64,000 nt of DNA, taken from the NCBI GenBank assembly GCA_964606485.1, contig CAZSGP010000003.1:130481-194480 (forward strand). The letters run 5' to 3'. Source of the DNA: an uncultured Planctomycetia bacterium (lineage in GTDB: Bacteria > Omnitrophota > Gorgyraeia > 2-02-FULL-51-18). A program made the translations under genes and the position numbers. The notes under the pieces are model-generated. The model saw only the letters and a program-made list of their open reading frames with translations, was not told the DNA's origin and did no database searches. Shown one piece after another: positions 1 through 34,632 of the stretch (its first letter is position 1; each line of letters starts with the position of its first letter).

Positions 1-57
1 AAAGTCTATGGCATTGCGATTAAATTTTCGGAAGAAGGGGTAGATTAAAGCCTTAGC

Positions 58-558
58 TTAACCGCAGGTCATGCAGGCGCTGAGCGGAGTGTTGCTTCTT
101 GCGCTGACCGGATAGTTTTTGGCTTGCCACGCTTGAAAACCATTTTCCATAGCACGCGAATATTTGTAACCTAATTTTTTAAGTTTAAATACTAAAACGG
201 CGCTGGCCTGACAGCCATCGCTGCAATAAGTTACTATTTCCACGTCTTTCGGATACATTTTCATTGCCTGCTCAAGAAATGCGTCGCTCTCCGGGAGTTC
301 TTTTAAGCGCCCCTGCCGAAAAAGTTCTTCTTTTTCATAATATTCTGGTGCGTAGGGAAGGAGTGCGCCCGGAATGTGCCCCTCATAAAAACTTTTACTG
401 CTACGGGCGTCGAACAGAACAAAACGAACGTTGTTCAGTTGTTTGGTGTGAACAGTTTCCATAGAGACTAGCTCGTTCTCATAAAGACCTGCCCATTTCG
501 GCTGACGAGGCACCGCTGCTCCGGCATCCCCTAAAAACAGGGAAGCCGTGAAGAGCAT
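58..558 (-). CDS. Rhodanese-domain sulfurtransferase
   Basis: Rhodanese fold with a catalytic Cys loop, 'CSDGCQASAV'. The N-terminus is hydrophobic. Confidence 0.6.
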   Translation of the reverse strand: MLFTASLFLGDAGAAVPRQPKWAGLYENELVSMETVHTKQLNNVRFVLFDARSSKSFYEGHIPGALLPYAPEYYEKEELFRQGRLKELPESDAFLEQAMKMYPKDVEIVTYCSDGCQASAVLVFKLKKLGYKYSRAMENGFQAWQAKNYPVSARSNTPLSACMTCG

Positions 559-584
559 GAGCAGGGTGACAGATTTTAAAATAA

Positions 585-1865
585 CTACCGAACCTCAATA
601 ACTGCTTCGGGCTGAGAGTTCGCGTTGGCTACAAACGAATCGCTAGATTGATCACAGTCGCTGCCCGATGCATCCTTAACCGTGAGCACAACCCGGTAGT
701 TGCCGGGTTTTACGTAAGCATGCTCAGTCTTGATGCCTTCGGCGGACGTCCCATCACCAAAATCCCAGTGATAGTTTAAGTCGGATCCCGTTGACTTGGA
801 ACCGTCAAAAGACGTGTTCCTCCCGATGCAGCAAACGAGGTTTTCGCCCGCATTTGCGATTGGCGATTCGTAAACCCTCACGGTGGTTTTATCGGTGGCC
901 ACGGAACAGCTTGAGTCTTGGCCATTGTCTGCAGTCACCGTAACCGTATAATCCCCGCCCTTGGAGTAGGAATGGGTAGCGCTCGAGCCACCCTCTGAAA
1001 CAGCTCCGTCACCAAAATCCCAGCGGTATTTTGCGTTGCCGGTGCCGTTGGCATCAAAACGAATCGATTTGTTCGCGCAGATAGAGTTTCTAGTCTGCGT
1101 AAGCTTGATAGTGACTTTGTCTGTGATTTGCGCTTGTGTCGAAGCGGATGCGACCGAACACTCTGTCTTTTTCCCGTCATCCACGATCAGATGAACGCGA
1201 TAGTTTCCTGCCTTTTGATAAGCGTGGGATATTTGCACACCCTCACCCTTTTGGCCGTCCCCGAAATCCCAGGTAAAGTTCGCGGGACCTGAAGCTGTGG
1301 ATCTGGAAGCGGAAAATAAAGCTTCTTCGCTCACACAAGCCTTGACGGGTGCGCCTGCGTCCGCAGTCGGAGGAAAATTGGAATACACTTTCGTGTTCGC
1401 AACCCCATTGCCGCAGATTTCTCCCGAGCTATCTCTTACCGTCAACACAGCGTTGTATTCGCCAGCTTTGTCGTAACAGTGCCTGGTGACAGCTTGGTCG
1501 CTTGTTTGTCCATCTCCAAAATCCCAAGTGTAAGTGAGTTTTTGCTTGTCCTGATCATAGGACTTGGTACCGTCAAAAGTAAAACAGTTGCATTTGCCCA
1601 TCGAAGTTTGTGGTTCTTTTCTGATGACGGGGGCAGGGGCTTCTTGGGTATTTCCGCCGTAATCAAACGGACTCGTATAAGATCCGCGGCCGGAATGCTT
1701 ATAGTAATTATGAGGGTCGTTCGAGTGGCTGCTTTTATTGGTGTAGCCGTTCCCAGTCTCATCTTGGCCCACTGTCGCTGCCGACGCGTTGGCCCCAAAA
1801 GAAATCATTATAGCAATGGCCGTTACACCCAACCCAACTCTCATACTTTTTTTAAAAATAATCAT
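585..1865 (-). CDS. Secreted protein with four PKD-domain repeats
   Basis: Four repeats of the PKD signature 'W[DH]FGDG', for example 'YTWDFGDGQTS' and 'YHWDFGDGTSAEG'. An N-terminal signal peptide is present. Confidence 0.7.
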   Translation of the reverse strand: MIIFKKSMRVGLGVTAIAIMISFGANASAATVGQDETGNGYTNKSSHSNDPHNYYKHSGRGSYTSPFDYGGNTQEAPAPVIRKEPQTSMGKCNCFTFDGTKSYDQDKQKLTYTWDFGDGQTSDQAVTRHCYDKAGEYNAVLTVRDSSGEICGNGVANTKVYSNFPPTADAGAPVKACVSEEALFSASRSTASGPANFTWDFGDGQKGEGVQISHAYQKAGNYRVHLIVDDGKKTECSVASASTQAQITDKVTIKLTQTRNSICANKSIRFDANGTGNAKYRWDFGDGAVSEGGSSATHSYSKGGDYTVTVTADNGQDSSCSVATDKTTVRVYESPIANAGENLVCCIGRNTSFDGSKSTGSDLNYHWDFGDGTSAEGIKTEHAYVKPGNYRVVLTVKDASGSDCDQSSDSFVANANSQPEAVIEVR

Positions 1866-1981
1866 ACGAACCTCCCGTGGTCAAAAAAATATTTAAATAC
1901 TGTGCGTCCAAGATAACAGGTCATGCTTTGCCGCTAAATAAGGGGAATTACTATTTTTTTTATAGGGGCGACGCCTTATAT

Positions 1982-2007
1982 ATGCTTCCGGGATGCAGAC
2001 AGGGTTC
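1982..2007. repeat. Repeat family A, copy 1 (consensus 'ATGCTTCCGGGATGCATACTGGGTTC')
   Basis: 26/29 match to the copies at 3149, 4655 and 5487. It sits just upstream of the first cassette-like gene. Confidence 0.7.
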
Positions 2008-2038
2008 TGGTAGAATGGTCTGATCAACAGGAGACGCA

Positions 2039-2566
2039 ATGTTTAAAAAATTACTATTGAGTGTAATCACAGTTTTGATTTTGGTTGTAGCTTATGCAGC
2101 AACGAAGCCTTCGGAGTACATGGTGTTTCGGGAAGTTTCTATCAATGCACCAGCCGAAAAGATTTTTACACTGATCAACAATTCCCGTGAAACCGAGCGG
2201 TGGATGCCTTGGGCCGAGACCGATCCAAAAATGAAGATGAGCTATTCTGGTCCGGAGTCGGGAGTCGGATCGAAAGCCTCCTGGGAGAGTCCTGGGCAGA
2301 TGGGTGTCGGATCGTCGACGATTTCTGAAAGCGCTCCGAATCAGTCCGTGAAGTACAGTCTCGAATACACAAAGCCTTTTCAAATGAAACAGACAGCTGA
2401 GATATCGATTACCCCTTCAGGCGGCAAGAACGTTGTGCGTTGGTCGGTGTGGGGTCACAATAAATTATTCTGCCGTGTGGTTTGCCTATTTATGGATATG
2501 GATAAGATGGTGGGTGGAAGTTTTGAGCAGGGGTTGAATAAGCTTAAAGTTATTGCGGAGGGATAG
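2039..2566 (+). CDS. SRPBCC (polyketide cyclase/START-like) family protein with an N-terminal transmembrane helix
   Basis: Size and sequence pattern ('INAPAEKIF...W..W') fit the SRPBCC fold. The match is weak. Confidence 0.4.
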
Positions 2567-2567
2567 A

Positions 2568-2990
2568 ATGAACAATATGCTCAAAGAGTTTAGAGATTTT
2601 GCCGTCAAAGGGAACGTGATCGACATGGCGGTGGGTGTGATCATCGGCGCGTCGTTTGGAAAAATCGTAACATCGCTCGTGTCCGATGTGCTAATGCCTC
2701 CGATTGGCCGGATTGTCGGCGGGGCGGATTTTTCAAATTATTTTTTGCTTTTAGGCGAAGGTTCTTTTACGACGCCGGAAGCTGCCAAGGCTGCGGGTGT
2801 GGCGACGCTAAACTACGGCGTGTTCATTAATAATATTATCAATTTTTTAATCGTCGCTTTTTGCGTTTTTATGATGGTCAAGGCAATCAATATGGCCAAA
2901 AAGAAAGAAGCCGAAGCGCCAAAGCCCGCTCCGGTGACACCGCCGGATGTGCTGTTGTTACAGGAAATCCGAGATTTATTGAAAAAATAA
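2568..2990 (+). CDS. mscL: Large-conductance mechanosensitive channel MscL
   Basis: The N-terminus '[31 protein letters not shown]' is near-canonical for MscL. A GGAGGG ribosome-binding site precedes the ATG at 2568. Confidence 0.9.
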
Positions 2991-3098
2991 TCCTTCAAGA
3001 TCACAAATTGTGACCAGTTCGCTTAATTCATTTTTCGTCAGTTGAAACAAAAAATCAGATGGAAAGCGGCCGCTATTTCTTTTAACTGCTTGGTTTAT

Positions 3099-3148
3099 TC
3101 CTCCCACTACACAAGACGTCAGACCCTTCGATTTTTACCAAAAATATT
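3099..3148. repeat. Repeat family D, copy 1 (50 bp)
   Basis: 49/50 identical to 5367..5416. At that second copy the reverse complement supplies the GGGAGG ribosome-binding site and 5'UTR of the ORF6N gene. Here no ORF follows, so it is an orphan copy. Confidence 0.8.
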
Positions 3149-3182
3149 GATTTTGTATGCTTCCGGGATGCATACTGGGTTC
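3149..3182. repeat. Repeat family A, copy 2 (34 bp 'GATTTTGTATGCTTCCGGGATGCATACTGGGTTC')
   Basis: Identical to 5487..5520. It is followed by the near-palindrome 'CAGATCCGGGATCTG'. Confidence 0.85.
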
Positions 3183-3247
3183 TAATTCAGATCCGGGATC
3201 TGAACTGGGTTTTGGTTTACCTATCACCACCTCAGGGCTGAAATTTT

Positions 3248-3436
3248 ATGGAAGTAGTACTTCTTATAGCGCTTTGCGTATTAGGATTGTACTTATTTTT
3301 TCTGCCCTCGATAATTGCTTATAACAAACAAAAGAAGAGGGCGGGTATGATTTTCTTGCTCAATTTTTTTGTTGGAGCAACAGGCGTTGGCTGGGTGGTT
3401 CTTCTAATTTGGTCTTGCGGAAACGATAGCAGCTGA
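3248..3436 (+). CDS. Superinfection-immunity-like small membrane protein (Imm_superinfect-like)
   Basis: 62 aa with two transmembrane helices. The motif 'AYNKQKKRAGMIFLLNFFVGATGVGWVVLLIWS' matches the Imm family consensus (A..R.H.N..IF.LN...G.TGIGW..ALIW). Confidence 0.6.
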   Translation: MEVVLLIALCVLGLYLFFLPSIIAYNKQKKRAGMIFLLNFFVGATGVGWVVLLIWSCGNDSS

Positions 3437-3518
3437 TTGGTGATTACGATATTTTTTAAGTTGTGTGTACCTGGACATCGGGAATATCCGATCCAGACTT
3501 GATGGAGAAAAATGCAGA

Positions 3519-3884
3519 ATGTCTAAATCTGTAACGACATATTGGAATCCGTTGATGCCGGATAAAGCGTCTTCCTGGACGCCCGTTAAGGGGCTTGAGG
3601 GAATTGCTGAAGAGTTGACCCTGAGCATGGATTCCGAATCTGGCGAGTATACCCGCTTAACTCGCTTTCTCCCTGGAGCCGATACCACTTCCTTTGGTGG
3701 AAAAACCCACAATTATCCTGAAGAAGTTTTTGTTGTGAGTGGGCGATTGTTTGACGTGGCTTTCGGCAAATGGCTTGAACAGGGACACTACGCTAGTCGT
3801 CCTCCCGGTGAAATCCACGGACCATTTAGGACGGATATTGGTTGTGTGGTTTTGGAAGTTTCTTTTCCGGGCAGGAAAGACTAA
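3519..3884 (+). CDS. Cupin-domain protein (ChrR-like cupin)
   Basis: A small beta-barrel-type sequence with a GGAGA ribosome-binding site before the ATG at 3519. The family assignment is tentative. Confidence 0.4.
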   Translation: MSKSVTTYWNPLMPDKASSWTPVKGLEGIAEELTLSMDSESGEYTRLTRFLPGADTTSFGGKTHNYPEEVFVVSGRLFDVAFGKWLEQGHYASRPPGEIHGPFRTDIGCVVLEVSFPGRKD

Positions 3885-3914
3885 GGGAATCAGGCGACCT
3901 GATATTTAATTCAG

Positions 3915-3940
3915 CAATTAAGTTATGTGTCCCTGGAATT
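3915..3940. repeat. Repeat family C, copy 1 ('AATTAAGTTATGTGTCCCTGGAATT')
   Basis: Recurs at 4754, 7095 and 7911. Its reverse complement resembles family A (TTCC[A]GGGA.CATA), so A and C behave as imperfect inverted partners. Confidence 0.8.
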
Positions 3941-4066
3941 CCCGGACGTGGTCCGGTAAAAACGGTAAAATGAGAAAATGGTAAAAAGGCAAACCGTAAG
4001 TATTGCTATTGGTAGCGGGCTCAGGTATACTTATTGTAGTTACAAATATGACTACAGGAGATACAC

Positions 4067-4354
4067 ATGACTTTAGCGACGGAGCTTCTTAGAGCCAGAC
4101 ATGTTGGGGTGAGGGATTTAAAAGCGCATCTGTCAGAAAGAATTAAGACCCGAAAGCCGCTCATTGTCACTGAGCATGGGGAGCCTAAACAGGTCATAAT
4201 TCCTTATGACGTGATTGTTGGAATCGCAGAAGTGCTGCAGGAGCTAGATGATAAGGAGCTCGTTAAAGCAGTGCGGCTTTCCCGCGCAGCCACAAAAAAA
4301 GGGAATGGCATTCCTGTAGAAATACTTTTTAACAAGATGAGATCTAAAAGGTAA
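4067..4354 (+). CDS. Type II antitoxin, Phd/YefM family
   Basis: 95 aa. The N-terminus ('VGVRDLKAHLSERI...PLIVTEHGEPKQVIIPYD') is Phd-like. It lies immediately upstream of a RelE-like toxin. Confidence 0.7.
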   Translation: MTLATELLRARHVGVRDLKAHLSERIKTRKPLIVTEHGEPKQVIIPYDVIVGIAEVLQELDDKELVKAVRLSRAATKKGNGIPVEILFNKMRSKR

Positions 4355-4357
4355 ATC

Positions 4358-4651
4358 TTGAACTACCGGGTTATTTTTGCTCATCCATCGATTAAAAGAA
4401 ATTTTGAAAAAACCCTCCTAACCGCTTCAGCGGAGCTTCGAGATGCAATCGTGCGCAGCGTCGTCAATTTGTCGAATAATCCACGGCCCCATGGGGTCAT
4501 AAAAATAAAACCCCCTTTGGATATTTATCATTCTTTGGCCGGATACCGTATTCGCATTCAAAACTACAGAGTGTTCTACGATATTGATGAAGAAAGAAAA
4601 ACTGTGTCAGTGATTGCTTTAAGAAGGCGCAATGAAGGCACTTATAAATAA
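4358..4651 (+). CDS. Type II toxin, RelE/ParE family
   Basis: 97 aa, overlapping or abutting the antitoxin. The C-terminus 'YRIRIQNYRVFYDIDEERKTVSVIALRRR' is typical of RelE/ParE. It probably starts with TTG. Confidence 0.7.
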   Translation: MNYRVIFAHPSIKRNFEKTLLTASAELRDAIVRSVVNLSNNPRPHGVIKIKPPLDIYHSLAGYRIRIQNYRVFYDIDEERKTVSVIALRRRNEGTYK

Positions 4652-4654
4652 CCG

Positions 4655-4682
4655 CTTGCTTCCGGGATGCATACTGGGTTCC
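4655..4682. repeat. Repeat family A, copy 3
   Basis: Starts 4 nt after the RelE stop codon. Together with the hairpin at 4697-4733 and C copy 2 it makes a compact ~126-bp element. Confidence 0.8.
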
Positions 4683-4696
4683 AATTCGGGTGCACG

Positions 4697-4733
4697 CAGA
4701 TCCCGGATCTGGCCTTTGAAGATCCGGGATCTT
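4697..4733. repeat. Perfect 13-bp inverted repeat hairpin (AGATCCCGGATCT-N9-AGATCCGGGATCT)
   Basis: Read directly from the sequence. It forms the centre of the A-C element. Confidence 0.85.
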
Positions 4734-4753
4734 CACGAGGTCGGTGTGGCCCG

Positions 4754-4780
4754 CTAAATTAAGTGTGTGTCCCCGGAATT
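4754..4780. repeat. Repeat family C, copy 2 (variant 'AATTAAGTGTGTGTCCCCGGAATT')
   Basis: ~22/25 match to the other C copies. Confidence 0.75.
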
Positions 4781-4832
4781 TCTGCGGAATTTCACGGAAT
4801 TTCAAAATCATCGCAGAGGCTTGAACCCATAA

Positions 4833-5360
4833 TTAGATCGCATGAAACCCGATTGACCTCTTAGGTTTTGGAGCGGGCGTTTCTAGCAGTTCCCGAATCG
4901 CTTCAAAAACTATCTTAAACTGCTTATCATGTTTTTCGTATTTTTGCTCAAGCTCTTCAATTTTTTGTCGAATTAGTTCATTGCTTGAGATCATTTCCCT
5001 TAACTTAGTAAACGTGCGCATAATTTGAATGTTGACTTGAATCGCGCGTCTACTATTTAAAACCGAAGACAACATTAGGATGCCGTGTTCGGTAAAAGCG
5101 TGTGGCAGGTATCTCTGACCGCCCCATCTTGAGGTTCCAATTTGGAACCTCAAGATTTCAGCCTCATCCTTAGAAAGCTTAAACATGAAATCCGCAGGAA
5201 ACCGGTCACGGTTTCGAGCTACAGCCTTATTTAGTTCCTTGGTTCTGACTCCATAAAGCTCAGCCAATTCCTTGTCGAGCATCACTTTCTTACCCCTGAT
5301 GATGTAGATTTTATTTTCCACAGCAACACCTGAAATTGGTCCAAATACCTGCTTAGTCAT
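4833..5360 (-). CDS. ORF6N-domain (KilA-N/antirepressor-like) protein
   Basis: The block 'IRGKKVMLDKELAELYGVRTKELNKAVARNRDRFPADFMF...RYLPHAFTEHGILMLSSVLNSRRAIQVNIQIMRTF' is a strong ORF6N signature. The ATG at 5358-5360 is preceded by GGGAGG, which lies inside repeat D. Confidence 0.85.
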   Translation of the reverse strand: MTKQVFGPISGVAVENKIYIIRGKKVMLDKELAELYGVRTKELNKAVARNRDRFPADFMFKLSKDEAEILRFQIGTSRWGGQRYLPHAFTEHGILMLSSVLNSRRAIQVNIQIMRTFTKLREMISSNELIRQKIEELEQKYEKHDKQFKIVFEAIRELLETPAPKPKRSIGFHAI

Positions 5361-5366
5361 AAATAA

Positions 5367-5416
5367 TCCTCCCACTACACAAGACGTCAGACCCCTCGAT
5401 TTTTACCAAAAATATT
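5367..5416. repeat. Repeat family D, copy 2
   Basis: Direct copy of 3099..3148. It contains the ORF6N ribosome-binding site and leader on the minus strand. Confidence 0.8.
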
Positions 5417-5486
5417 TTCAACATTTTTTAAACTCTTAACGTTTTGAGAGGGGAAGATGAGTTGGTGCACCTCAATCTCGGTAGTT

Positions 5487-5520
5487 GATTTTGTATGCTT
5501 CCGGGATGCATACTGGGTTC
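5487..5520. repeat. Repeat family A, copy 4
   Basis: 34/34 identical to 3149..3182. Confidence 0.85.
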
Positions 5521-5522
5521 AC

Positions 5523-5590
5523 GTGGTCCGGTCTACTCGGCCTTGCGGTCAGAGGAGCAAGTAGTCAGTTGGAGACTTGACCCCTTATTT
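5523..5590. repeat. Repeat family B, copy 1 (68 bp)
   Basis: 67/68 identical to 6857..6924. It contains an internal hairpin (CTACTCG...CAAGTAG). Confidence 0.9.
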
Positions 5591-5622
5591 ATTTGTATTT
5601 GCAGCATGAAAAAGGAGATAAA

Positions 5623-6012
5623 TTGAAAAAAACTATACCGTTTATACTAGTTATATTTGTTTGCCGGATGGGATGGGCGGAAAGTATCGTTTTTGAAGGT
5701 GCGCCGGATATCAAGGGTGTAAATACTCTGCAGGATGTATTTAATGAGCCGGTCAATGATGAGAACAAGAAAACTTCACGCCTAGTAATAACCAAGGAGA
5801 ATGGCCAATATATTTGGTTCTCTAGAGAAAAAAATAAGCTTCGATTTTATAAAGATGATAATTTTATATATTTTGTTCGGGAGGATAGACCGGATTATAT
5901 AAAAATTTCAAAGCCGCCCCAATCGGAAGGAAAATATATTTATATGGAACATATGTCCGATGGTATGAAGACGCTCACTTATTGGGGGAAATCCGATAAA
6001 TTAGAATTATAG
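5623..6012 (+). CDS. Hypothetical secreted protein (~129 aa)
   Basis: TTG start with an AAAGGAG ribosome-binding site 5 nt upstream. It has an N-terminal signal-like hydrophobic segment. No recognisable domain. Confidence 0.45.
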   Translation: MKKTIPFILVIFVCRMGWAESIVFEGAPDIKGVNTLQDVFNEPVNDENKKTSRLVITKENGQYIWFSREKNKLRFYKDDNFIYFVREDRPDYIKISKPPQSEGKYIYMEHMSDGMKTLTYWGKSDKLEL

Positions 6013-6091
6013 GCAGCGCAACGGGCAAGAAGTGGTTTATGTAAAACTCTTAAGAGAAGGGAGGTAAGGTCGAGCAAATCGACATAGTTTT

Positions 6092-6733
6092 ATGTCTCAA
6101 GAATATTTCGAAAAAATCAACGAAGCTCTTGAAATTCAGAAAAAATATTCAGCGCTAAAAATACCGGTTTTTGATCAGATTGGTTCTCAAAGCGCTTTAA
6201 GTCCCAATTTTTGGATTAAAGGACAAGCCCAGAACTACATTTTTGCGAGCACGCATTTATCTGGGCAGATTATCGAGGCTCTCCAAAAAGCACATCTTCA
6301 ACTTGCAGTTGTAGGAAGCAGAACGCTTTTTGAAATGGCAGTAAATGCGACTTATATTTACAATCATCCAAAAAAAAGAAAAAGACTTTCTCCAATTCAA
6401 ATGAGAGAAGTTTGTAAAAAAATTGTTTGGTTGGCAAATAAAAGGCGAGGACATGTAAATCATTCCAAAATCGAAGGAACTATCAAAAGTCGATTAGAAT
6501 CGATGGGAATGGGATCTTCATATAGAACTACCTACAGAGTTATGAGCGACTGGGCGCACTTACAATCACGGGCAATTCAGATTTCTGCAGATCCACAAAA
6601 GGCCACGAAATTTGGCATACAAATAGCAGAAGTTACCTTACGAGGCCTCCACAACACTTTCGATTCGATATGCACATATTTCAAGTACGCGCTTGATCCG
6701 GCGTTGGAGCAAGAGGTGATTGGCTTTAAGTAA
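6092..6733 (+). CDS. Hypothetical protein (213 aa), mostly helical by composition
   Basis: Clean ORF in the cassette region with no family recognised. The segment 'KRRGHVNH' loosely fits an R-x4-6-H (HEPN-like) motif, but this is very tentative. Confidence 0.4.
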   Translation: MSQEYFEKINEALEIQKKYSALKIPVFDQIGSQSALSPNFWIKGQAQNYIFASTHLSGQIIEALQKAHLQLAVVGSRTLFEMAVNATYIYNHPKKRKRLSPIQMREVCKKIVWLANKRRGHVNHSKIEGTIKSRLESMGMGSSYRTTYRVMSDWAHLQSRAIQISADPQKATKFGIQIAEVTLRGLHNTFDSICTYFKYALDPALEQEVIGFK

Positions 6734-6856
6734 GACGCTAGGTAACACCGATATCGAAAAGCGGGCGGCTTATAGAGCATATTTGATGCAACCTAGGCGA
6801 AATGAAATGCTACTGGAGATGAAAAGCTAACGTGTCCCCAAAAGGGCGTTTCGGAG

Positions 6857-6924
6857 GTGGTCCGGTCTACTCGGCCTTGCGGTCAGCGGAGCAAGTAGTC
6901 AGTTGGAGACTTGACCCCTTATTT
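6857..6924. repeat. Repeat family B, copy 2
   Basis: Direct repeat of 5523..5590. The two B copies bracket the two-gene module 5623-6733. Confidence 0.9.
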
Positions 6925-7094
6925 TCAAAAAACGAGCTGCAAAAATTGGCGCAAATGGTGTGTTGCTAACAACCACAGGAACTCAGACATCTGCGATGGC
7001 TGGTGGTTATGGGACTGGCGCGATGTGGGTTATACCAGTAAATGCTAAAGTTGTTAAGGGGACGGCAATTTTTGTAAGTGAGGAGTAGTGGTTT

Positions 7095-7120
7095 AAATTA
7101 AGTTATGTGTCCCTGGAATT
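7095..7120. repeat. Repeat family C, copy 3
   Basis: 25/25 match to copy 1. Confidence 0.85.
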
Positions 7121-7140
7121 ATGTGCCGAGGTTGACGAGG

Positions 7141-7809
7141 ATGTCAAATGTCAAAGACCAAACTTCCCCTTATTTTATGAACAAATGCATTAGGTTTGCG
7201 GTCGGAGCAAAAACAGGCCTAAAATCCTCAATATATAACATCACTGTCTGTAAAAATGATATTTACATCTCTGCAGGTATATTAACGAGAGAGACAAAGG
7301 TTAGCATTCATGAAAGCGGTTGTGGGCAATGGTCATACAGATCTGAGGTTTGGAAGGATCGGAAAAAGCCAAATAATGAAAGACATATAGTAAAATGGAA
7401 CTCCCTAATACCTACCGATCTAAAAGCAGTAAATGTTCTTCGAATACGAATACCACATACAACATTAACTCAATATTCTGCACCCTCATCAGAAGATAAG
7501 GTTAAATGGGTTTCCGGGTTACTGTCAGGAACATATCAATTTGATTTATGTCTAACACCACCATCTCAAACAGATCCAGCGCGAGACAGAAGTGACTTAC
7601 CACATGAAGTACTAGGTACATTACAATTGAATGACAAGCGGTGGTTGGTTGTATTTTACCAAGGAACCCCATCGTTAAGTATCCCGAAAGAAGATATCTT
7701 ACGAGAAATAGGAAATAAGGATATTAACCTTCAGGGAACGGGGGGTATGTGTCTTTTTGGTGCTAGTGATGATGGTGTCCCTGTAATGATTGAATGTGTA
7801 TTAAAATAA
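7141..7809 (+). CDS. Hypothetical protein (~222 aa)
   Basis: ORF with no recognisable domain, bracketed by C copies 3 and 4. Confidence 0.4.
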   Translation: MSNVKDQTSPYFMNKCIRFAVGAKTGLKSSIYNITVCKNDIYISAGILTRETKVSIHESGCGQWSYRSEVWKDRKKPNNERHIVKWNSLIPTDLKAVNVLRIRIPHTTLTQYSAPSSEDKVKWVSGLLSGTYQFDLCLTPPSQTDPARDRSDLPHEVLGTLQLNDKRWLVVFYQGTPSLSIPKEDILREIGNKDINLQGTGGMCLFGASDDGVPVMIECVLK

Positions 7810-7910
7810 GAGTTACACACATGACCTACACCAACAAAACACAACTAAAAAATAATGACCAAACCCCCTTTTAAATTCAGCAAAATCAGGGGACGCAATA
7901 CTCAATTCGA

Positions 7911-7936
7911 TAATTAAGTTATCTATTCCCCGGAAT
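7911..7936. repeat. Repeat family C, copy 4 (variant)
   Basis: The core 'TAATTAAGTTAT...CCCCGGAAT' matches. This copy is more diverged. Confidence 0.6.
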
Positions 7937-7980
7937 CCACGAAATTCATATTTGCACAGTACACGTTAATATGGTATTAT

Positions 7981-8277
7981 TTGACCGTGATCATCAGCTT
8001 TAAAGACCAGGCAACGGAAGACATTTTTAATGGAATATCTTCCAAGAAGGCTCTGAAGTTTCCTGTGGTTGTTTGGCAGGTGGGGAGTCGGAAGCTGGAC
8101 ATGATTAACGCGGCGCACGAACTAAAAGATCTTATGATTCCGCCCGGAAACCGCCTGGAAGCATTAAAAGGTGACTTGAAGGGATACCACAGCATTCGTA
8201 TTAATGAAAAATACAGGATTGTGTTTAAGTGGCTTGAGGCCAATGCATCTGAAGTCGAAATTAAAGATTACCACTAG
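7981..8277 (+). CDS. higB: HigB toxin (RelE/ParE superfamily, 'plasmid maintenance system killer')
   Basis: 98 aa. It is the HigB-type toxin of a HigB/HigA module and is encoded upstream of its antitoxin, as in higBA. The start codon (TTG or GTG) is uncertain. Confidence 0.7.
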   Translation: MTVIISFKDQATEDIFNGISSKKALKFPVVVWQVGSRKLDMINAAHELKDLMIPPGNRLEALKGDLKGYHSIRINEKYRIVFKWLEANASEVEIKDYH

Positions 8278-8285
8278 GGGGTAAA

Positions 8286-8558
8286 ATGATACCAACCAAT
8301 CGAAAACCAAATCATCCGGGGGAAATTCTATTAAAAGAGTTTCTGCAGCCGATGGGCTTAACTCAATTAGAGCTGGCAAAAAAAATGCATGTGCCCGTTC
8401 AAAGAGTCAACACGCTTATCAATGAAAAAAGAGGTGTGACTGCGGAGACGGCTATTTTGTTGAGCGAAATATTGAAAACCTCGGCAGAATTCTGGATGAA
8501 TTTGCAGGCAACATATGATCTTTATGAGGCGCGGCACCATCTCAAGATAGCGGCTTAA
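8286..8558 (+). CDS. higA: HigA antitoxin (XRE-family HTH)
   Basis: The N-terminus 'HPGEILLKEFLQPMGLTQLELAKKMHVPVQRVNTLINEKRGVTAETAILLSEIL' is canonical for HigA/VapI. Confidence 0.85.
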   Translation: MIPTNRKPNHPGEILLKEFLQPMGLTQLELAKKMHVPVQRVNTLINEKRGVTAETAILLSEILKTSAEFWMNLQATYDLYEARHHLKIAA

Positions 8559-8562
8559 CCCC

Positions 8563-9978
8563 ATGCGTCACCACAGCCGCTCGCTGCTAATCACCTTAAC
8601 CACCGTTTTGCTTTTGACTTCGCGAGTTTTTGCCCTCGAACCCGAACCCACCACCAAATCCCTTTCGCCTCGGGCGTATTTTAAAACCGCGTTGAATGAA
8701 ATCAATAAAGCCCAAGCTTCGGTTGATCTGTGCATGTATCTGATTAGTTTTTACCCCAAAGAAACAGACTCGCAGGTTTATCAGCTCATGAGCGCGCTTG
8801 CTAAGGCCAAAGCGCGTGGCGTCGCGGTGCGGGTGATTCTGGACCAAGATCCCACTCAAAAAAATTTGGCAGCGGCACAGTTTTTGAAACAGGCGGGTGT
8901 CCCGGTGTTTTGGGACTCGGAACTTGTGACCACGCACACCAAAGCGCTTGTGATGGACGGCGAAACGGTGCTGGTGGGTTCAACGAATTGGTCGGAGAGC
9001 GCATTTTCGCGCAACAATGAATCAAATGCGTTCATTCGGTCGAAAGAGTTTGCCGAAGACTTGCTTGCGGAATTTGCCAAAATTAAAACGGTGGAGGCGG
9101 CGGATCCGGATGGACTCGTGGTGAAGATTCCGGTGCATTTTTTGAGCGCGGACATCATGGGTGAGATGGTGAACGAATCCGACGACCGCGCGATGGACAC
9201 GTACTTGTGGCTTTTGAAGGAAGGAAAAAGTGAGCTCGATTATGAAAAACTCGCCGAGGCACTGGGACTTTCAACGGAGGAGCCCATCGGTTACCGCAGG
9301 CAGATCAACAAGACGCTTGAGAAGCTTGAGCAAAAATATTTATTAATCCAAGTGACGACCGAATACGGCAAGCCGGCTCAAGTGAAAATGGACAAACCAA
9401 ACGGCGGGGATTTTAGTGTGCCGCTCGATTACTGGACGCTTGGCTGGGACCGCGAGCTCTCATTTCCAGCGAAGGTGATGCTTCTTCTGAATCGGTATTA
9501 TTCCCAAGATTCGTCCAATTACCCCAAGTGGCGCAAGTCGGTCGCCGGGATTGCCGAGGAGCGGGGGATTTCTCAAGATTTTGTGAGCACGGGCACGATG
9601 AGTTTGCGGCGTTGGAATCTTATTGAAGTGCGTTATGACTCGCTATACGCGGATGATGCGCCGCGCGTTGCGAATGAATACACACCGAAGCCGCTTTATG
9701 ATCGTAAAGAGGAAGAGGTGAAGCTGAGGGCGCTGGTCACTCTCTATGGAAAAGAGGGGGTCGAGCGCGCCCGCGCTGCGGCGAATGCGGTTTATGAAGA
9801 TCACGACATGGATGGAGTGGAAAAGCTCGTCCAACTTGAGAATCGTTACAGTCTAAACATTGTGCAGGCGGCGCTTAAAGTCATCCTTGAGAAAAGCCCC
9901 GACAATCCGAAGCGCTCGCTGGCGTACCTGATCCGCACCATTGAGCGAATGGGCGAAAAAGGATTTCTCGCCGAATAA
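8563..9978 (+). CDS. Secreted phospholipase-D-like (single HKD motif) protein with a ~280-aa C-terminal region of unknown function
   Basis: N-terminal signal peptide. One HKD motif, 'HTKALVMDGETVLVGSTNWSESAF'. The C-terminal half has no family I can recognise. Confidence 0.65.
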   Translation: MRHHSRSLLITLTTVLLLTSRVFALEPEPTTKSLSPRAYFKTALNEINKAQASVDLCMYLISFYPKETDSQVYQLMSALAKAKARGVAVRVILDQDPTQKNLAAAQFLKQAGVPVFWDSELVTTHTKALVMDGETVLVGSTNWSESAFSRNNESNAFIRSKEFAEDLLAEFAKIKTVEAADPDGLVVKIPVHFLSADIMGEMVNESDDRAMDTYLWLLKEGKSELDYEKLAEALGLSTEEPIGYRRQINKTLEKLEQKYLLIQVTTEYGKPAQVKMDKPNGGDFSVPLDYWTLGWDRELSFPAKVMLLLNRYYSQDSSNYPKWRKSVAGIAEERGISQDFVSTGTMSLRRWNLIEVRYDSLYADDAPRVANEYTPKPLYDRKEEEVKLRALVTLYGKEGVERARAAANAVYEDHDMDGVEKLVQLENRYSLNIVQAALKVILEKSPDNPKRSLAYLIRTIERMGEKGFLAE

Positions 9979-9990
9979 AATCAGATTGCA

Positions 9991-10275
9991 GCGAGTCCTG
10001 TCCTCGGAGCTTCAGATGCGCGTCGAAGATATCCTGCTCGTTACGCTCCGCTGTTTGCGGGGGTACGGCGGATCAGACCTCTTGGTTTGAATGGGAAGCG
10101 CCTGCGCTAAAAAGACAATCCCGGCCTCGAGGTTCTAGAACTTCGCTACGCGCTTTACACTGCGCTGGATATTCTCCGCCGCGCATTCGGATGACCGATT
10201 AGCGGCGGGTGGCCGAGGCGAGATGAGCTCGTGCGCAACTGCACACGAGATCGCTCGCCGAAGGACAGGACCCGC
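9991..10275. repeat. GC-rich non-coding element bounded by 17-bp imperfect inverted repeats (GCGAGTCCTGTCCTCGG / CCGAAGGACAGGACCCGC)
   Basis: The terminal inverted repeats match 15/17 about 250 bp apart. There is an internal hairpin, 'CTCGTGCGCAACTGCACACGAG'. Local GC is higher than in the flanks. No plausible ORF is present. Confidence 0.5.
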
Positions 10276-10356
10276 CGCGTGTTTGGACGCATGAATTTGT
10301 TGGATTAAGCGGAATGCTCTGATAGAATAGCTCGCCAAAAGGGGAACTGCTTACAT

Positions 10357-10857
10357 ATGAAAAAATATCTTTTTGGCATCGTTTTTTCCGCACTACTTCT
10401 GCACTCCACTAGCGCGTTCGCGCTCGACAAAAAAACAATCGAAGCAAAGGGTGAAATTGTTTCAACGAGTCCAATCAGCTCGTCTGTCACAATTAAACAC
10501 GGCGTGATCAAAGGATTTTCTGACGCCGGGGAAACTAATTTCGTTGTCGCCTCAAAAGATCTTTTAAATAATTTGTCGCGTTTCGATCTTGTGAATTTTA
10601 CGATCGTGGACGACAAGGGCAATGCGCAGATTGAAAAAATTTCGAAGACCGGTGTCGCGGAGCCTGAGAAGAATGGCCTCGCGATCGGTGAAGCCGCGCG
10701 TGACGTTTTGAAAGCCACCAGTGAAACGGCGAGTTTTGTGACAAGCCCCATTCCTCCGGCGCAGGGCTTGGTCAATGACACGGTTGGTGCGGTGGCGAAT
10801 GGAACAGGCGAAGCGGTGCAAGACGCCTCGGTTCCGAATACGAAAAACAAATTTTAA
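10357..10857 (+). CDS. Secreted OB-fold protein, CusF-like (the metal ligands are not conserved)
   Basis: Signal peptide. The pattern 'GEIVS...VTIKHGVIKGF....NFVV.....L..L..FDLVNFTIV' resembles the CusF/DUF fold. The match is weak. Confidence 0.35.
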   Translation: MKKYLFGIVFSALLLHSTSAFALDKKTIEAKGEIVSTSPISSSVTIKHGVIKGFSDAGETNFVVASKDLLNNLSRFDLVNFTIVDDKGNAQIEKISKTGVAEPEKNGLAIGEAARDVLKATSETASFVTSPIPPAQGLVNDTVGAVANGTGEAVQDASVPNTKNKF

Positions 10858-10920
10858 AACTTAGAAAAGATCCTTCGGCGAAAAAACGCCTCAGGATGAC
10901 AGGGAAAAAAGGAGATTAGA

Positions 10921-12084
10921 ATGGGTTTTTGGCTGGGTCGCGGTAGAAAAGCACGGCGTTCGTACGGATTTGACGAGATCGCTCTCGTTCCGGGAAATGT
11001 AACCATTAATCCCAACGAAGTTGATACGTCCTGGGAAATTGGAAAGAAAAAATTTCGCGTTCCGATTTTAGCCAGCGCCATGGACGGCGTGGTCGACGTG
11101 AATTTTGCGGTCAAGATGTCGAAGCTTGGCGGCATTGCGGTGCTGAACCTCGAAGGCGTGCAGACGCGTTACGATAACCCAGGCGAAGTGCTAAAGAAAA
11201 TTGCTGCGGCGACCCCTGAAGAATCGGGTCCGCTCTTGCAAGCCATTTACAAACAACCCATCAAGCCAAAACTCATCGCAAAGCGCATTAAAGAGATCAA
11301 GCAGCGCGGCGGAACAGCGGTTGTGTCGAGCATTCCACAACGCGCAGAAGAGTTTGGAAAAATTGCGCAAGGCGCGGGCTGCGACATTTTTGTGGTGCAA
11401 TCCACGGTGTCGACGGTGAAACACATCTCGAGTGAATACAAGACGATTGATTTCTTTAAATTCTGCCAGAAGATGATGAAGATTCCGGTGATCATTGGAA
11501 ACTGTGTAACGTACCAAACCACACTGGAGCTTATGGAAACCGGTGTCTCGGCGCTTTTGATTGGTGTGGGGCCCGGAGCTGCGTGCACGTCTCGCGGCGT
11601 TCTCGGACTGGGTGTGCCGCAAGTCACGGCCATTTGTGACGCGGCAGCGGCGCGCGATGCGTACTTTAAACGCACGAAGAAATACATTCCGATTATTGGC
11701 GATGGCGGAATGTCGTCCGGTGGAGACATTTGTAAGGCATTTGCTTGCGGGTCGGACGCAGTGATGGTGGGTTCTGCTTTTGCGCGCGCCAAAGAAGCGC
11801 CGGGCGGCGGCTACCACTGGGGCATGGCGACTCCGCACGCGAACTTGCCGCGCGGGACTCGGATTCGGGTGAGCACGACGGGAACCTTAGAAGAAATTTT
11901 GTACGGACCGGCCAAACTCGATGATGGATCGCAAAACCTCATGGGCGCTCTGCAAACCTGCATGGGCAATGTCGGTGCGATGACGGTGAAAGAATTGCAA
12001 CTTGTGGATCTTGTGATTGCGCCGTCGATCAAGACTGAAGGAAAAGTGTTTCAACAAGCCCAACGCGTCGGAATGGGCAAGTAA
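10921..12084 (+). CDS. IMP dehydrogenase-family protein lacking the CBS pair (GuaB3-like)
   Basis: A TIM-barrel IMPDH/GMP-reductase-like sequence ('FDEIALVPG', 'ASAMDGV', 'IGDGGMSSGGDI'). At 387 aa there is no CBS insert. Confidence 0.7.
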   Translation: MGFWLGRGRKARRSYGFDEIALVPGNVTINPNEVDTSWEIGKKKFRVPILASAMDGVVDVNFAVKMSKLGGIAVLNLEGVQTRYDNPGEVLKKIAAATPEESGPLLQAIYKQPIKPKLIAKRIKEIKQRGGTAVVSSIPQRAEEFGKIAQGAGCDIFVVQSTVSTVKHISSEYKTIDFFKFCQKMMKIPVIIGNCVTYQTTLELMETGVSALLIGVGPGAACTSRGVLGLGVPQVTAICDAAAARDAYFKRTKKYIPIIGDGGMSSGGDICKAFACGSDAVMVGSAFARAKEAPGGGYHWGMATPHANLPRGTRIRVSTTGTLEEILYGPAKLDDGSQNLMGALQTCMGNVGAMTVKELQLVDLVIAPSIKTEGKVFQQAQRVGMGK

Positions 12085-33837: not shown

Positions 33838-33881
33838 TTAAGGTAGATTTGTTTAGATATATTTAAATTGTTGACTCGTTT

Positions 33882-34573: not shown

Positions 34574-34596
34574 TTTAAACGCCATCTTAACTTTAA

Positions 34597-34632
34597 CGGA
34601 TAAGAGCAGCTGCTCTTATCCGTTTTTGTTTT
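34597..34632 (+). terminator. Rho-independent terminator
   Basis: Perfect 13-bp palindrome CGGATAAGAGCAG/CTGCTCTTATCCG followed by TTTTTGTTTT. Confidence 0.85.

Follow-up and report, generated by a model that had tools for sequence, protein, structure and literature searches.

The attC sites of integron cassettes are closed by two boxes, R'' (5'-RYYYAAC) and R' (5'-GTTRRRY), whose AAC and GTT triplets are conserved. On Acinetobacter plasmids, small modules that often carry toxin-antitoxin genes are bracketed by inversely oriented pdif sites, which are used by XerC/D; each site comprises 28 bp (an 11-bp XerC arm, a 6-bp spacer and an 11-bp XerD arm), and the recombinase is encoded elsewhere. 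In the covariance model of IntegronFinder, an attC site is represented by an R box, an unpaired central spacer, an L box and extrahelical bases, and a cluster of at least two model-detected attC sites without an integrase is termed a CALIN (PMC9024848). In Omnitrophota, lateral transfer of toxin-antitoxin pairs and KilA-N/ORF6N genes has been reported to be frequent (bioRxiv 10.64898/2026.05.20.726742), and no integron was documented there in the literature we searched. We analyzed a stretch of 64,000 nt, called the window below (contig CAZSGP010000003.1, positions 130,481 to 194,480, forward strand), and within it a palindromic element, J4, located just downstream of a ParE-family toxin gene in a small gene island. 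The host is, judging from an IMPDH-like protein with 82–85% identity to proteins of Omnitrophota metagenome-assembled genomes, an uncultured Candidatus Omnitrophota bacterium. We tentatively propose, as a possibility short of a probability, that this accessory island is cassette-like and that J4, used by an unlinked recombinase, marks a junction between its modules.

The original prediction, made from the sequence of the window, had placed an A repeat, a 13-bp inverted repeat with a 9-nt loop and a C repeat together just 3' of the toxin stop codon, and all of these are present. The A box reads TGCTTCCGGGATGCATACTGGGTTC and is centered on the 9-mer palindrome TTCCGGGAT; its first base in J4 lies six bases past the ParE stop codon TAA (4649–4651). 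The arms of the 13-bp inverted repeat are AGATCCCGGATCT (4698–4710) and AGATCCGGGATCT (4720–4732), and each 13-nt arm forms a palindrome of its own, AGATCC(S)GGATCT (6 + 1 + 6). Between the A box and the C box of J4 (A3 and C3) lie 74 nt, these two palindromes included, and three tandem copies of CGGAATTTCA (4774–4804, + strand) run on from the end of C3. J4 measures 126–136 bp and contains no open reading frame (ORF). The span first predicted, 4655–4780, holds a real element but is too short, as pairing reaches the outer CCGC/GCGG and the true extent is 4652–4787. A 5' end reading TAACC (4649–4653) had also been claimed; this motif includes the stop codon and falls outside the predicted start. 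Of the two motifs assigned to the 3' portion, GTGTGTG was found (4763–4769), whereas GTTATGT is confined to two other C copies (3916 and 7096).

The window contained four A boxes, three of them identical (chance expectation 0.00), and five C boxes, of which C2 and C4 are identical and C1, C3 and C5 degenerate (72–76% identity, ungapped). As predicted, A and C are adjacent only in J4. All nine boxes are intergenic, on the + strand and within 1976–7940, with none in the other 58 kb, and when C2 was used as the lone query the other four C copies were the four top matches in the window. The G + C content is 0.38–0.46 over ~2500–8500 vs ~0.50–0.54 beyond. The gene order in the island is an ORF6N pseudogene, Imm_superinfect, cupin, Phd/ParE, ORF6N (− strand), two genes (one unknown, one for a DUF5677 protein), o234 (an unknown 222-aa protein), HigB/HigA and a PLD/DrmC-like gene. 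Relatives keep the CusF-IMPDH-FTHFS synteny and have none of the genes upstream of CusF. We counted the low G + C content, the absence from relatives, the island-confined intergenic boxes and the cassette-type cargo (two toxin-antitoxin pairs, PDC-S05, Imm_superinfect, cupin and unknowns) in favor of a junction site.

Read by orientation, the boxes enclose modules: C1-cupin-J3 left arm, C2-Phd/ParE-A3, C3-ORF6N-A4 and C4-o234-J7 left arm. The units with inward-facing boxes measure 766 bp (C2...A3), 765 bp (C3...A4) and 815 bp (C4...J7 left arm). At J3, J4 and J7, a module's right box adjoins the left box of the following module; all three junctions are palindromic, J3 and J4 begin 0–6 nt past a stop codon, and J4 is the sole junction lying between convergent genes (ParE +, ORF6N −). 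J3 and J7 share ~55 nt of homology (71% identity, E 5e-4) between unrelated flanks. The suggestion that the other A and C copies are split halves of an intact element suits A2, which keeps one arm of the inner hairpin (AGATCCGGGATCT), but not C2 and C5, which have left arms of their own and form ~60-bp palindromes.

On our proposal, the island would be small, horizontally acquired and cassette-like, and J4 would join its Phd/ParE and ORF6N/PDC-S05 modules. J4 would consist of two inverted, island-specific boundary boxes of ~25 nt, with A and C as variants centered on a TCC(S)GGA-type palindrome. Between A and C, the 13-nt palindrome (AGATCC(S)GGATCT) would occur two more times. The boxes would be the binding and crossover sites of a site-specific recombinase encoded elsewhere in the genome, and modules within inward-facing boxes (C ... 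gene ... A) could be excised, inserted and reassorted. Where a right box met the next left box, a palindrome would arise (J3, J4, J7) that could extrude as a hairpin; between convergent genes, the J4 hairpin would probably also stop transcription. We infer the recombination activity, the identity of the recognizing protein and any transcriptional effect from the features described here. The logic of J4 may be regarded as an analogue of that of an integron attC/CALIN array, J4 itself not being a member of that family.

The flanks of the boxes were compared. The 25-nt cores of A2, A3 and A4 are 100% identical, as are the cores of C2 and C4, and the flanks of the copies are unrelated apart from those of A2. 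The left flank of A2 is that of A4 (Smith-Waterman score 11; TTGATTTTGTA and, at 96%, the 53-nt D8 repeat), and its right flank is that of A3 (YAATTC ... AGATCCSGGATCT; score 13). The background had a mean of 5.9 and a 99th percentile of 10, and the remaining A-flank pairs were at background. C2 and C5 have left arms in common and not right flanks, and C2 and C4 share only the core. Homology stops at the box edges, the pattern expected if crossovers fall within the boxes. With its A4-type left flank, A3-type right flank and the same core, A2 appears recombinant-like, and we counted the identical cores with reassorted flanks in favor of a junction site.

Further signs of rearrangement that we counted for a junction site are the 68-nt B repeats and the ORF6N pseudogene. 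B1 and B2 bracket two genes, o139 (a 139-aa signal-peptide ORF) and the gene for the DUF5677 protein, and are att-like or a recent duplication. Each copy of D8 adjoins an A box, and a 70-nt indel distinguishes the two arrangements. The copy at 3096–3148 heads the truncated ORF6N pseudogene (2976–3107, − strand), whose coding part is otherwise divergent; the joining of this pseudogene to D8 and A shows past rearrangement of the region at the boxes. By eye, a degenerate C-like stretch lies ahead of B2 (~6826–6845).

The repeats might instead be a functionless relic of duplications, deletions and inversions in a decaying island, with J4 as two fragments that came to lie side by side. The truncated pseudogene with its duplicated upstream region (D8 + A), the B duplicates, the 10-nt and 70-nt indels between repeat copies, the degenerate state of C1, C3 and C5 and the lack of a recombinase among the scanned ORFs of the 64 kb all fit such a history. 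It is nevertheless unlikely: identical 25-nt cores amid unrelated flanks are hard to obtain by plain segmental duplication, all copies avoid coding sequence and lie in the same strand orientation, homology between the discrete elements J3 and J7 ends sharply and their flanks are unrelated, and a perfect 13-bp repeat is improbable by chance (by our estimate, ~0.05 expected per 64 kb for loops of ≤50 nt).

Table 1 Coordinates of J4, the repeat boxes and the adjoining modules in the window.
Feature	Position	Strand	Description
J4, whole imperfect palindrome	4652..4787	.	Folds as DNA and RNA; outer pairs CCGC/GCGG
A3 (A box copy), left arm of J4	4657..4681	+	100% identity to copies at 3158 and 5496
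Inner inverted repeat of J4	4698..4732	.	13 bp, perfect; 9-nt loop
C3 (C box copy), right arm of J4	4756..4780	+	22/25 columns equal to C2/C4, one 1-nt gap
A1	1983..2007	+	2 mismatches; between divergent PKD gene and SRPBCC-MscL genes
A2 + TAATTC + one 13-nt palindrome AGATCCGGGATCT (3189–3201)	3158..3201	+	Repeat matches, flank comparison
A4	5496..5520	+	Repeat matches; repeat B1 directly after
C1	3454..3478	+	76% identity; 18 nt past Imm_superinfect stop
J3, compact palindrome (own left arm, 4-nt loop, C2 at 3916–3940)	3883..3945	.	Starts at cupin stop codon
C4	7096..7120	+	100% identity to C2; 21 nt ahead of o234 start
J7, compact palindrome (own left arm, 4-nt loop, C5 at 7912–7936)	7874..7941	.	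Upstream of HigB/HigA
Repeat B1	5523..5590	+	Directly after A4; 99% identity to B2
Repeat B2	6857..6924	+	68-nt direct repeat with B1
Repeat D8 (ORF6N ribosome-binding site + upstream region)	3096..3148	-	Partner 5364–5416; 53 nt, 96%
Phd-family antitoxin (4067–4354) + ParE-family toxin (4358–4651)	4067..4651	+	ParE_toxin Pfam E 1.3e-6; module ends at J4
ORF6N-domain protein, PADLOC candidate defence family PDC-S05 (E 5.5e-61)	4833..5360	-	Convergent with ParE; bracketed by C3 and A4

Folding of both strands, named as a check in the original prediction, gave one long hairpin on each. As DNA, J4 reached −30.1 kcal/mol on the + strand (z −4.1) and −27.4 on the − strand (z −3.2), and as RNA −65.3 and −51.2, respectively. 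J3 folded on both strands (RNA ~−19 kcal/mol, z −2.1; DNA of the arms alone, z −2.5), and J7 folded well on the − strand only (RNA −21.9, z −3.3; + strand not significant). Paired by themselves, the A and C cores gave −11.0 vs −5.7 ± 1.8 in shuffles (z −2.9; 4 of 300 as good), and the inverted arms of J4 align at 30 of 39 positions (score z ~1.9). Part of the A/C pairing arises because both boxes contain the same small palindrome, WTCC-S-GGAW, which lies at the center of A, of C and of either arm of the 13-bp repeat; aligned with the reverse complement of C, A scored 8 by Smith-Waterman, below the 99th percentile of the background (10). One aligned C-box position, read off the folds, is an A-U pair in J3 and a G-C pair in J4; we counted this difference, and the three palindromic junctions with two of them at stop codons, in favor of a junction site.

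Several results weigh against J4 as a junction site. The fold signal of J4 comes mostly from the 13-bp stem: with this stem swapped for a tetraloop, the long arms gave −16.4 vs −13.6 ± 2.2 in shuffled sequences (z −1.3; 34 of 300 as good), a modest support for the hairpin outside the stem. Strand preference was inconsistent (+ for J4, − for J7, neither for J3), and a strand-specific structure at the RNA level was rejected on this ground; C1 and C4 had no significant local hairpin partner, and the notion of such a partner for every C box was dropped with them. Three A and two C boxes are solitary, which is unexpected in a clean cassette array, and the flank mosaic is based on short flanks, with scores of 11–13 vs a 99th percentile of 10. 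The canonical attC core (RYYYAAC/GTTRRRY) was found in none of J4, J3 and J7. By Pfam, no integrase, transposase or RAYT domain was detected in the 64 kb among the scanned ORFs of ≥150 aa (the scan covered the flanking genes and ORFs of this size, minus obviously overlapping ones). Contigs of the same organism in Logan and ENA included no second strain, circular junction or alternative arrangement, and no related box was found in relatives' loci (1.45 Mb) or in the public collections searched. The proposal concerns one locus in one genome, with no comparative or population support, and its weight is limited accordingly.

The original prediction had called J4 an intact attC-like recombination site. 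Its imperfect palindrome, its A and C arms and its position at a module boundary in a cassette-like array were borne out, but the canonical attC core and a nearby integrase were not. The likeness to a CALIN is one of architecture: the island palindromes (~60–135 bp) lie at or just past the stops of small, mostly co-oriented ORFs with toxin-antitoxin and defence cargo, their right arm is conserved, in contrast to variable left arms, and no integrase is adjacent, as in a CALIN. J4, J3 and J7 have the lengths of attC sites, which are imperfect palindromes of ~55–140 bp directly after a cassette ORF. CALINs are moreover common, and attC sites vary in sequence while their structure is conserved (PMC9024848). 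Comparison with the canonical R''/L''/L'/R' boxes, however, came out negative. J4 has a single AAC (4650) and a single GTT (4678), 28 nt from each other, and its stem continues past the expected R'/R'' end. AAC is missing from J3; in J7 the sequences beside AAC (7862) and GTT (7918) are non-complementary, and the stem extends outside both. The near-invariant AAC...GTT triplets are absent, the conserved stem TTCCGGG/CCCGGAA lies outside the expected R''/R' closure, and conservation runs for ~12 nt rightward of the putative GTT, where an integron would keep only 6. Conservation past the putative crossover, several solitary boxes and the lack of a consistent strand asymmetry also set the island boxes apart from attC sites. 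No IntI gene was found in the 64 kb, and no integrase that would complete an integron (IntI and attI beside the array) was present among the Pfam-scanned ORFs. Clustered palindromes without an integrase are present, and the core-motif comparison points away from attC; that J4 is a genuine attC site in a CALIN is extremely improbable.

The bracketed modules also recall those between pdif sites: small modules are bracketed by inversely oriented short sites, and their contexts are mosaic. The sites differ in that no 11-6-11 structure could be recognized in A or C and in being doubled back-to-back rather than shared singly. By eye, TTATGT in the C boxes is the only resemblance to the inner XerD arm, the arms lack dyad symmetry, and the window supplied no Xer genes for comparison.

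A miniature inverted-repeat transposable element (MITE) was the other identity that the original prediction offered. J4 would then be a non-autonomous element with A and C as terminal inverted repeats, the larger A...C/C...A units would be passenger-carrying relatives, and a transposase would act in trans. Like Correia/NEMIS elements and the 126-bp ERIC-like ones, J4 is short (126–136 bp) and non-coding, has inverted arms and a long hairpin, lies in intergenic transcribed DNA by gene ends, and has longer and shorter versions; units of 765–815 bp are bracketed by inward-facing boxes, and Logan assemblies break at the A boxes, where contig ends fall, as they would at repeats. We nevertheless consider a MITE very unlikely, as there is no target-site duplication (J4 flanks ATAAATAA / AATTTCAC and J3 flanks GACTA / ACGTG, without a direct repeat), the similarity of the inverted arms is weak, and all copies lie within 6 kb instead of being dispersed over the remaining 58 kb. 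No transposase was found among the scanned ORFs of the window, and no copies were found in relatives or public collections. A 7-bp AAATTCA pair near J7 was rejected as a target-site duplication, since it does not line up with the arms and belongs to a recurring AATTC motif. The 21-nt A palindrome, single or as inverted pairs in a larger hairpin, resembles REP (repetitive extragenic palindromic), BIME and REPIN elements. Those families are genome-wide with tens to hundreds of copies, whereas the boxes here occupy one island within 64 kb; the 58 kb outside the island contained no boxes, the window no RAYT-like ORF, and a GTAG-type head was not found.

The palindromic centers could also be read as operators bound by a dimeric DNA-binding protein of the island (of the ORF6N/PDC-S05, HigA or Phd class), like phage operators or 'stoperators', with J4 as a bidirectional terminator or insulator between ParE and ORF6N. 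As found in A2 and A4, the A box forms a 21-nt palindrome that is nearly perfect, GTATGCTTCC-G-GGATGCATAC. The WTCCSGGAW 9-mer occurs nine times in the window vs 2.8 ± 1.7 expected, with seven of the nine within the island, and J4 combines four centers of this type with three tandem CGGAATTTCA half-sites. Boxes lie 16–130 nt upstream of most island genes, yet their spacing to the start codon is variable (21–127 nt), and A3 and C3 face the 3' ends of genes, where there is nothing to regulate. Neither the flank mosaic nor the B direct repeats would be explained by operators, and we rate this reading as possible but somewhat unlikely. If the boxes are operators or terminators, the island has ordinary, island-specific regulation.

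The island boxes share with stoperators and bidirectional terminators their placement as short conserved palindromes in intergenic gaps on a mobile island, and a strong hairpin separating convergent genes; they differ in their lack of a U-tract. After the inner hairpin of J4 come TCACGAGG (+ strand) and GCGTGCAC (− strand), and this hairpin does not form the GC-rich stem-loop plus T/U run of an intrinsic terminator on either strand; a terminator scan did not flag J4. TTATTTAT follows only after the complete palindrome, on the − strand, which makes some terminator activity of J4 toward ORF6N plausible.

Other identities were tried and rejected. A sigma-70 or sigma-54 promoter in the A and C boxes was dismissed because hexamers and spacing misfit and a promoter scan performed no better than on shuffles. 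A known RNA family was excluded by an Rfam 15 scan of 1–12000, which gave only two chance-level matches elsewhere, and a tRNA-derived att site by the position of the sole tRNA, at 33881. Downstream of A1 (window 1983–2038), TGGTAGAAT is extended −10-like and is followed by an AGGAG ribosome-binding site before the SRPBCC-MscL genes; the stretch after A4 that matches the downstream region of A1 has diverged (ACGTGGTCCGG). Directly after C2, GGTAAAAAT is repeated in tandem 3.9 times (3955–3987), comparable to the three CGGAATTTCA copies after C3. Replication slippage could have produced these tandem repeats after two C boxes, or they could serve as arrays of half-sites for protein binding.

Relatives of the boxes were sought by several routes. 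The A-box pattern had no matches in GTDB representative genomes and four in JGI metagenomes, all in unrelated coding sequence and without similarity beyond the pattern; the A and C patterns gave chance 16-mers or nothing in IMG/VR. A blastn search of the island against plasmids and phages returned two coding-sequence matches only (cupin and ORF6N genes) and no boxes. Searches of the 1.45 Mb of relatives' loci with nhmmer and a fuzzy pattern returned same-organism contigs only. Exact-protein look-ups of ParE, ORF6N, DUF5677 and HigA likewise gave only short Logan/ENA contigs of the same organism, identical to the window. The translation of a spurious ORF across A4 and B1 had no match among ORFs called elsewhere, and the contexts of ORF6N and o234 homologues in other genomes contained no comparable arrays.

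In one related genome, L040 (Omnitrophota nzgw285), the same IMPDH-like gene is directly preceded by an island that includes an ORF6N gene of its own (L040 6426–9169). It carries five copies of a box family Y (GGTACCATTTCC....GTGCCGGGT..), one of them inverted, and three copies of a family X (ATAACGGTACCGGGTACCGCGGGGACA). The Y boxes end in GGGTTAGAAT or GGGTTAAAAT, lie 16–29 nt ahead of start codons and are promoter-like, and the L040 junctions have no long hairpins. Direct-repeat boxes at this distance from starts, in an island with its own ORF6N, favor operators, and the two islands together hint at a recurring ORF6N island with private intergenic boxes; neither recombination nor regulation is decided by the L040 array. 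A wider claim, which we regard as quite doubtful, is that Omnitrophota possess a non-integron gene-cassette system in which single-gene defence or toxin-antitoxin modules, bounded by palindromic ~25-bp sites (the A and C boxes, centered on TCC-S-GGA), are excised, inserted and shuffled by an unlinked recombinase. J4 would then be a complete double site, the system would have left the flank mosaic and the two-gene B insert as footprints, and L040 would be a second instance with different sites. Were the boxes recombination sites, they would reveal cassette shuffling outside the integron paradigm in a poorly known, uncultured phylum and offer a concrete site for tracing the movement of small defence genes.

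Among the island genes, the coding sequence of ORF6N/PDC-S05 holds a perfect 15 + 15-nt palindrome, ATCTTGAGGTTCCAA / TTGGAACCTCAAGAT (5126–5156). The L040 ORF6N homologue has a palindrome at the same codons, and a near-copy after its stop codon resembles an intrinsic terminator (L040 ~7897–7935 and 8226–8254). The ORF6N pseudogene of the window ends ~8 nt past its own copy of the palindrome (2991–3020), at the MscL stop, and the 10-mer GGTTCCAATT is common to the ORF6N-palindrome region and the right end of A3. The PLD-family protein at the far end of the island (471 aa, 8563–9978; PLDc_2, PADLOC DrmC-like E 4.5e-12) carries a signal-peptide-like segment at its N terminus, while its long C-terminal half is unannotated, and its gene starts 4 nt past the HigA stop, where the G + C content rises again. 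Outside the island, a perfect 17-nt palindrome, AACGGATAAGAGCAGCT / AGCTGCTCTTATCCGTT, is located at 34595–34624 between a 188-aa unannotated ORF and a PP-loop (TilS-like) gene.

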